This document shows, one piece after another, positions 63,410 through 64,000 of a DNA stretch of 64,000 nucleotides. Both the position numbers and the translations under genes were made by a program. Numbering within the stretch: the stretch's first letter is position 1; each line of letters starts with the position of its first letter. Below the pieces are notes generated by a model, which saw only the letters and a program-made list of their open reading frames with translations, was not told where the DNA came from and made no database searches. This DNA is from Candidatus Aenigmatarchaeota archaeon. Lineage in GTDB: Archaea; Aenigmatarchaeota; Aenigmatarchaeia; GW2011-AR5. Location: positions 128,001-192,000 of the forward strand of contig JACQID010000006.1 in the NCBI GenBank assembly GCA_016198685.1, given 5' to 3'.

Positions 63410-64000
63410 ATTCCGGTTGATCCCGCCGGAGATTACTGCTATCAGGATTCGGCTAAGCCATGCGAGGCATTGTCGCAAGACAAGCCGCACTGCTCAGTAA
63501 CACGTAGTCAACCTGCCCTTGAGCGGGGGATAACCTTGGGAAACTGAGGATAATACCCCATAGGCGATAATGGCTGGAAGGCCTCTTCGTTCAAAGCTTC
63601 GGCACTCAAGGATGGGACTGCGGCGGATTAGCCTGTTGCGGGGGTAAGGTCCCTGCAAAGCTATAATCCGTACGGGTCGTGAGAGCGATAGCCCGGAGAT
63701 GGTTTCTGAGACATGAAACCAGGCCCTACGGGGCGCAGCAGGCGCGAAAACTTCGCAATGCATGAAAGTGTGACGAGGGGATCCTGAGTGAACTCGCAAT
63801 GCGGGTTCTTTTGCCGAATGTAAACAGTTCGGCGAATAAGTGGTGGGCAAGACGGTTGCCAGCCGCCGCGGTAATTCGAAGAATCGTAACCATAATCAGC
63901 TGGTAAATCGGAAAACCGATTCTTGATTTCCGGTTCTTCGAACCGTAAATAACCGCGCCACGAGTGGTAATCGCTTTTATTGGGCCTAAAGCGTCCGTAG
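63410..64000 (+). rRNA. 16S rRNA, 5' part (runs off the window), with an intron
   Basis: ATTCCGGTTGATCC start; CCTACGGGGCGCAGCAG; GCCAGCCGCCGCGGTAA; TATTGGGCCTAAAGCGTCCGTAG. Confidence 0.99.
63874..63948 (+). other. 75-nt BHB intron in the 16S 530 loop
   Basis: Central helix GCGG/CCGT, bulges TA|A and AA|A, inner stem TTCGAAGAA/TTCTTCGAA; removal restores GCGGTAATAACCG. Confidence 0.93.

Follow-up and report, generated by a model that had tools for sequence, protein, structure and literature searches.

The 16S rRNA gene and its surroundings

The window, meaning the whole 64,000-nucleotide stretch of DNA that was analysed, corresponds to G000:C1:128001-192000. It belongs to a metagenome-assembled draft genome of 935 kb in 8 contigs that is 93.7% complete, and the host is a very small archaeon of the Aenigmatarchaeota (DPANN). 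At its 3' end the window runs into a 16S rRNA gene, the rest of which lies beyond it (Table 1). This is the sole 16S match in the genome (L001:1501-3280). It is 1780 nt long compared with the 1478 positions of the model (RF01959) and scores 1400.7 bits. With a single 16S gene at this level of completeness, the interrupted gene must give functional rRNA. The 23S gene (L044, G000:C1:195576-198738) measures 3163 nt against a 2987-position model and probably contains inserts too. Between the 16S and 23S genes aragorn calls a tRNA-Ala with a predicted 63-nt intron.

The 16S gene is flanked by a processing stem that contains a fully canonical bulge-helix-bulge (BHB) motif. Its outer helix has 19 bp and its central helix (63364-67) 4 bp, and its bulges are of 3 nt each (63368-70 on the 5' strand). 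This motif is a predicted in-genome example of an EndA substrate, and it is located in the same transcript as the insert described below.

Table 1. Features of the 16S rRNA locus. Plain coordinates are positions in the window.
Feature	Coordinates	Strand	Basis or remark
16S rRNA gene, 5' part (host)	63410..64000	+	RF01959, 468 bits; extends past the window to G000:C1:193189
BHB of the 16S processing stem	63345-63370, with partner strand L001 ~3325-3360 (3' flank)		Canonical
Probable ORF-less BHB intron, 75 nt, E. coli 532/533	63874..63948	+	Model alignment, bulge rule, identical copy in contig L051
Central helix, exon strand GCGG (E. coli 527-530)	63868..63871	+	Pairs with 63943-63946 in 12 of 12 aligned introns
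Central helix, intron strand CCGU	63943..63946	+	CCGU or CCGC in 22 of 22 distinct introns
Bulge 1, UAA; predicted 5' cut 63873/63874	63872..63874	+	Identical bases in the 12 distinct introns checked
Bulge 2, AAA; predicted 3' cut 63948/63949	63947..63949	+	AAA in 20 and AUA in 2 distinct introns
Intron stem h', 5' arm	63875..63886	+	12 bp with 63931-63942
Intron stem h', 3' arm	63931..63942	+	12 bp with 63875-63886
Inner hairpin, 6-bp stem and 4-nt loop	63906..63921	+	MFE fold
Conserved internal 6-mer CUGGUA	63900..63905	+	Complementary to exon 63857-63862
Exon bases 516-521, UGCCAG, possible partner of the 6-mer	63857..63862	+	Sequence complementarity
Near-copy of the 3' arm, alternative partner of the 5' arm	63917..63926	+	RNAalifold
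515F primer site	63856..63874	+	First base T for G; last base is the first intron base
Second 16S insert, 55 nt, ~E. coli 793/794, inside the 806R site	L001:2301-2355 = G000:C1:192210-192264		Beyond the window
Third 16S insert, ~185 nt, helix loop at ~E. coli 1360	L001 ~2933-3117		Beyond the window

An insert in the 530 loop

When positions 63410-64000 are placed in the Rfam archaeal SSU alignment, the 530 loop takes up 78 nt where the model has 3 positions. Read directly, exon 1 ends with GCGGTA at 63873 and exon 2 restarts with ATAACC at 63949, which leaves 75 nt between them. A short repeat at both ends of the insert makes four junction registers equivalent if the sequence alone is considered. 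The BHB rule, by which the cut falls after the second base of a bulge, selects among these registers and gives the two cuts listed in Table 1. The motif anchors U516, G527 and G530 of the textbook E. coli numbering put the insert between A532 and A533. The first-pass annotation had proposed an intron of this size, at these coordinates and this site, and without an ORF. Model alignment and the bulge rule bear out the size and the boundaries, the anchors agree with the site, and 75 nt is too small to hold an ORF.

What kind of insert is it? A self-splicing intron of group I or II that has degenerated is one candidate. Group I introns are present in DPANN rRNA genes (PMC6125680), and helix 18 of eukaryotes is reported to host them at position 516 (PMC9223047). 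However, a ribozyme core would by no means fit into 75 nt, let alone into the 34 nt of the shortest relatives (see below). Moreover, an Rfam search, at the gathering score and at E values up to 10, found no intron family and hit only exon. The chance that the insert is a decayed ribozyme is next to nil. A C/D-box or kink-turn guide was also considered and was rejected on the grounds that there is no C box within the 75 nt.

A relaxed splice motif

The ends of the insert and the adjoining exon bases form two 3-nt bulges on opposite strands with a 4-bp helix between them, which is the arrangement that defines a BHB. On each strand the central helix precedes the bulge, as it does in archaeal tRNA introns. 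The first pair of the central helix is G-U in 8 and G-C in 4 of 12 aligned introns from relatives. The isolated intron folds at -22.9 kcal/mol (z = -3.95), and none of 200 shuffled sequences folds equally well. By a reading of the alignment, the stem of the inner hairpin is retained in relatives that have differing sequences in this region.

One element of the full motif is missing. An outer exon-exon helix (h) was sought in several registers and none was found, since the sequences on either side of the motif, before 63868 and after 63949, are not complementary. This places the motif among the relaxed forms and not with the full hBHBh', but the missing outer helix does not exclude the BHB kind. 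This qualifies the earlier description of the motif. The GCGG/CCGT helix and the 3-nt bulges are all present, but the form is not canonical. Similarly, the term hairpin intron is apt as far as the stem goes, but there is more to the structure, namely an inner helix, a competing fold and, in a large internal loop, a conserved 6-mer. A nested second splice motif, made from the 6-mer or the inner hairpin, was looked for and rejected, as no arrangement of two bulges and a 4-bp helix could be built without cutting into the exon.

The local minimum-energy fold pairs exon 1 with exon 2, giving neither native helix 18 nor the splice motif. Folding by free energy therefore counts against the insert being a BHB intron, as does RNAalifold, which also favours a competing structure (discussed later).

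Introns at the same site in relatives

Sixty relatives were searched with the SSU model, and their genes were aligned to an intron-less relative in order to place inserts. The 16S genes found in this way span 1.5 to 4 kb, which points to many inserts. At 532/533 an insert of 34-123 nt is present in 10 of the 19 readable genes, and the predicted spliced junction is present in the other nine. In other words, removing the insert restores the conserved mature sequence, since the predicted junction is the sequence that the nine intron-less relatives have.

The distribution of the insert is narrow. Its 5'-junction pattern occurs in 11 records among 185,579 species genomes, of which seven are labelled Aenigmatarchaeota, one Thermococci and three, GW2011_AR5 included, only uncultured or unnamed archaea. 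The same pattern occurs in 18 metagenome contigs. When window positions 63790-64000 were compared by BLAST with 371 genomes sampled across the phylum, intron-spanning alignments were obtained in 12 only, a count that refers to homologous introns, so that non-homologous ones may exist at 532/533 elsewhere. All 12 genomes come from three families within the host's own order. In other orders the exon matches abut, with no insert, wherever both are listed. A separate observation concerns QMUB01000120.1 (L041/L060), which is labelled 'Thermococci archaeon B89_G9' and carries an Aenigmatarchaeota-type 34-nt intron at 532/533. Its label or its binning is probably wrong.

Altogether there are 22 distinct introns of 34-123 nt, and all 22 agree in the central helix and the bulges and have a stem of 4-12 bp. 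In an alignment of 12 of them, the pair cells are paired in 144 of 144 cases, a share that falls to 26-51% if one side is shifted by 1-3 columns. Covariation was scored at 0.242, versus 0.116 for shuffles, and none of 500 shuffles reached that value. The first 8 pairs of stem h' are fully paired in the 12 aligned introns, and three pairs change on both sides.

Could the 75 nt be a lineage-specific expansion of helix 18 that the mature rRNA retains? Unusual inserts do occur in DPANN rRNAs. Nevertheless, this one interrupts a single-stranded part of the decoding centre that is universally conserved. What is conserved in it is the ends and not the body, and the ends are the parts that form the splice motif with its compensatory changes. 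Its length varies from 34 to 123 nt, and some close relatives are entirely without it. These points make a retained expansion most improbable.

Another possibility is an assembly artefact or a dead gene copy, and the genome is, after all, a metagenome-assembled draft in 8 contigs. However, an independent metagenome contig, L051 (Ga0209541_10000428), has the identical 75 nt in a 16S gene that is 99.7% identical over 963 nt, and homologous introns recur across many projects. Furthermore, the interrupted gene is the only 16S copy, and its 1400 bits extend over the whole model. An artefact or a dead copy is thus exceedingly hard to credit. L051 also carries an extra insert of ~73 nt at 16S position ~302 that is absent from the window's genome (G000:C1:191711). 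Very close strains thus differ in whether an intron is present at that position.

How did the introns come to be distributed in this way? No homing endonuclease ORF, LAGLIDADG or other, is present in any of the 22 variants, the longest of which has no room for one at 123 nt. This absence in every copy suggests an origin of the family inside a single order, followed by inheritance, shortening or loss. There are also no other copies of the intron sequence in the genome, where only chance matches of 12-16 nt were found. The intron is therefore not a member of one of this organism's tRNA intron families.

Splicing enzymes and the proposed reaction

The genome encodes candidates for both enzymes that splicing would need. 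EndA is a single 203-aa ORF (L042:1474-2085, minus strand; PF01974, 97 bits). Among solved structures it comes closest to the M. jannaschii homotetramer, over the full length (1A79, E = 2.9e-31). Right before the catalytic His it carries a Lys-rich insertion of 6 residues, which the N. equitans alpha subunit shares and to which that subunit aligns without gaps. RtcB is also encoded (PF01139, 568 bits). Introns are predicted in 28 of 39 tRNA genes by aragorn, a tool that over-calls. An EndA of the homotetramer type is classically held to be strict for the canonical motif. This, together with the lack of an exon-exon helix to close the second bulge, is the other point against the insert being a BHB intron. 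One relevant piece of background is that in DPANN the loop-bearing alpha4 EndA accompanies heavy disruption of tRNA genes (Kaneta et al., 2018, PMC5829648). Elsewhere in the window (53322-53565), aragorn makes two intron-bearing tRNA calls, Cys-GCA with a 62-nt intron and Arg-GCG with a 27-nt intron. Since these calls abut, they may be a single multi-intron tRNA that was mis-parsed.

Taken together, the 22 introns at one site with their compensatory changes and the exact junction in intron-less relatives support the spliced intron that the first-pass annotation had proposed. The 75-nt insert is very probably a genuine BHB (tRNA-type) intron that is excised from the pre-16S rRNA with ligation of the exons. 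We infer the cutting and ligation themselves from sequence. In the proposed reaction, exon bases 527-530 would pair in the transcript with the last four paired bases of the intron. The arms of the intron would form the 12-bp stem, presenting the two cut sites in 3-nt bulges that are 4 bp apart. The single EndA would then cut after the second base of each bulge (63873/74 and 63948/49). Finally, RtcB would join the exons, restoring the universal sequence of the 530 loop, and would probably circularise the intron. A search of the metagenome contig collection for the spliced-junction pattern gave no matches, and such a search cannot tell cDNA from intron-less DNA.

What if EndA or another nuclease excises the insert but the exons are never rejoined? 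The result would be a two-piece 16S rRNA like those produced by bacterial intervening sequences. Fragmented rRNAs occur in other organisms, although no specific observation points to one here. Against this idea, RtcB is encoded and must already ligate many tRNA exons. A break between 532 and 533 would fall within the decoding loop, and the ligated junction is identical to the sequence of intron-less relatives. A two-piece 16S rRNA is therefore very unlikely.

Comparison with known introns

If the insert is the BHB intron that we favour, how does it relate to those already described? One survey lists 13 archaeal 16S intron loci, at positions 374, 548, 722, 781, 803, 901, 908, 919, 978, 1093, 1205, 1213 and 1391 (Jay and Inskeep, 2015, PMC4496867). 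The site at 532/533 is not among them, in agreement with the annotator's remark that it is not known to be among the commonly listed archaeal 16S intron positions. In several respects the introns of that survey are similar to the 532 intron. They are small and ORF-less, lie in highly conserved parts of the 16S rRNA and interrupt universal primer sites, and the conserved cores of their exon-intron junctions form the motif. In contrast, their hosts are thermophilic members of TACK (Thermoproteales, Desulfurococcales and Aigarchaeota) and none is located in the 530 loop (PMC4496867), whereas the hosts of the 532 family are DPANN and its long form has a conserved internal 6-mer.

Within the DPANN themselves, rRNA genes are known in which BHB introns accompany group I introns, with several in some genes, as the accessible part of one study reports (Nawrocki et al., 2018, PMC6125680). 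The group I sites given in that part are LSU 1923, 1931, 2500 and 2593 and SSU 1498, and it gives no BHB site in the 530 loop. Group I introns of eukaryotic nuclear genes at SSU 516 share with the 532 intron a location in helix 18, next to the decoding loop, and an insert at 516/517 is likewise found among this archaeon's relatives. However, the eukaryotic introns are self-splicing ribozymes of several hundred nt, and they differ in mechanism and in domain of life.

Closer in mechanism are the introns of archaeal pre-tRNAs, including the relaxed ones. These share the 4-bp central helix, the 3-nt bulges, the position of the cuts and the predicted use of EndA and RtcB. The 532 intron differs in that its host is an rRNA and in that no outer helix closes its second bulge. 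The BHB of the 16S processing stem has the transcript, the predicted enzyme and the geometry in common with it. Unlike the intron, the processing stem is fully canonical, and what it sets free is the entire rRNA, not a segment from within it.

No description of the site was found in the open-access literature on DPANN, Aenigmarchaeota and the 530 loop, although an earlier mention is possible, for instance in the 2015 paper that released GW2011_AR5. The sequence of such an intron has been publicly available from the GW2011_AR5 record onwards, if not earlier. The introns at 532/533 thus belong to a familiar type, but within this literature both the site and the family, which is specific to one lineage, are new.

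An exon-binding element inside the intron?

The long introns have one more feature in common. A 6-mer is maintained amid otherwise variable sequence in all 17 that are at least 75 nt long. It reads CUGGCA in the 16 others, the exact complement of exon bases 516-521, and the sole variant, that of the window, preserves the pairing through G-U. A second clue comes from the introns that some relatives have at 523/524. Their central helix uses exon bases 518-521 (CCAG), which overlap the target of the 6-mer. In L017 introns at 523/524 and 532/533 occur together with a 9-nt micro-exon between them, and its 532 intron is without the 6-mer. In this group inserts are found in helix 18 at ~510, 516/517, 523/524, ~526/527 and 532/533 (L013, L017-L020, L022, L023, L028 and L030), so that helix 18 is an intron hot spot within this order. 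A third clue is the alternative fold. In the structure favoured by RNAalifold, the partner of the 5' arm is a near-copy of the 3' arm inside the intron, and three of these pairs change on both sides. Together, the 6-mer, the 523/524 helix, L017 and the alternative fold allow for an exon-binding or switch function.

How might this operate? The 6-mer would pair with bases 516-521 and so keep the 5' strand of helix 18 off its native pairings. Bases 527-530 would thereby become available to the splice helix, and folding of the decoding loop would have to wait until the intron is spliced out. The alternative pairing between the 5' arm and the copy of the 3' arm inside the intron could serve as a switch. 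The long intron would then carry its own exon-binding element and act as a folding helper or an assembly checkpoint, not as a passive insert. Some observations do not fit this idea. The 34-nt mini introns do not have the 6-mer, the complementarity was noticed post hoc, and the exon partner is invariant, so covariation cannot be assessed. On balance, such a role is rather doubtful. If the 6-mer does pair with the exon, it would be an example of an intron that aids the folding or the assembly timing of its host rRNA.

Primer sites, further inserts and significance

The insert coincides with the 3' end of the 515F primer site (Table 1). Apart from its first base, this site matches the primer. It had been noted earlier that the 3' end of the site lies at the insert, that its first base is mismatched and that the product would be 75 nt longer, and the sequence agrees on each point. 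The predicted effect on V4 amplicons is also right as far as it goes, but its extent was understated, as a second insert splits the 806R site and both primers are affected. The second insert follows the same motif logic as the 532 intron, with exon UUAG, intron CUAA and AUA bulges, and like that intron it holds an internal duplicate of its 3' arm. At the 806R site the end of the intron mismatches 2 of the last 6 bases that pair with the primer. A third insert includes a 6-mer whose complement lies further downstream, in the decoding-site sequence (L001:3153-3158). A single 16S transcript is thus predicted to carry three such spliced inserts.

With inserts at the end of 515F and within 806R, amplicon surveys, length filters and automatic 16S callers would under-count or mis-handle these archaea. 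The insert therefore adds to the causes why surveys with standard 16S primers may miss them. For the organism itself, a single 16S gene with inserts means that the supply of ribosomes would depend on accurate, protein-catalysed splicing. It would also mean that tRNA-type introns are tolerated in the 530 decoding loop, which is among the most conserved and critical stretches of RNA.
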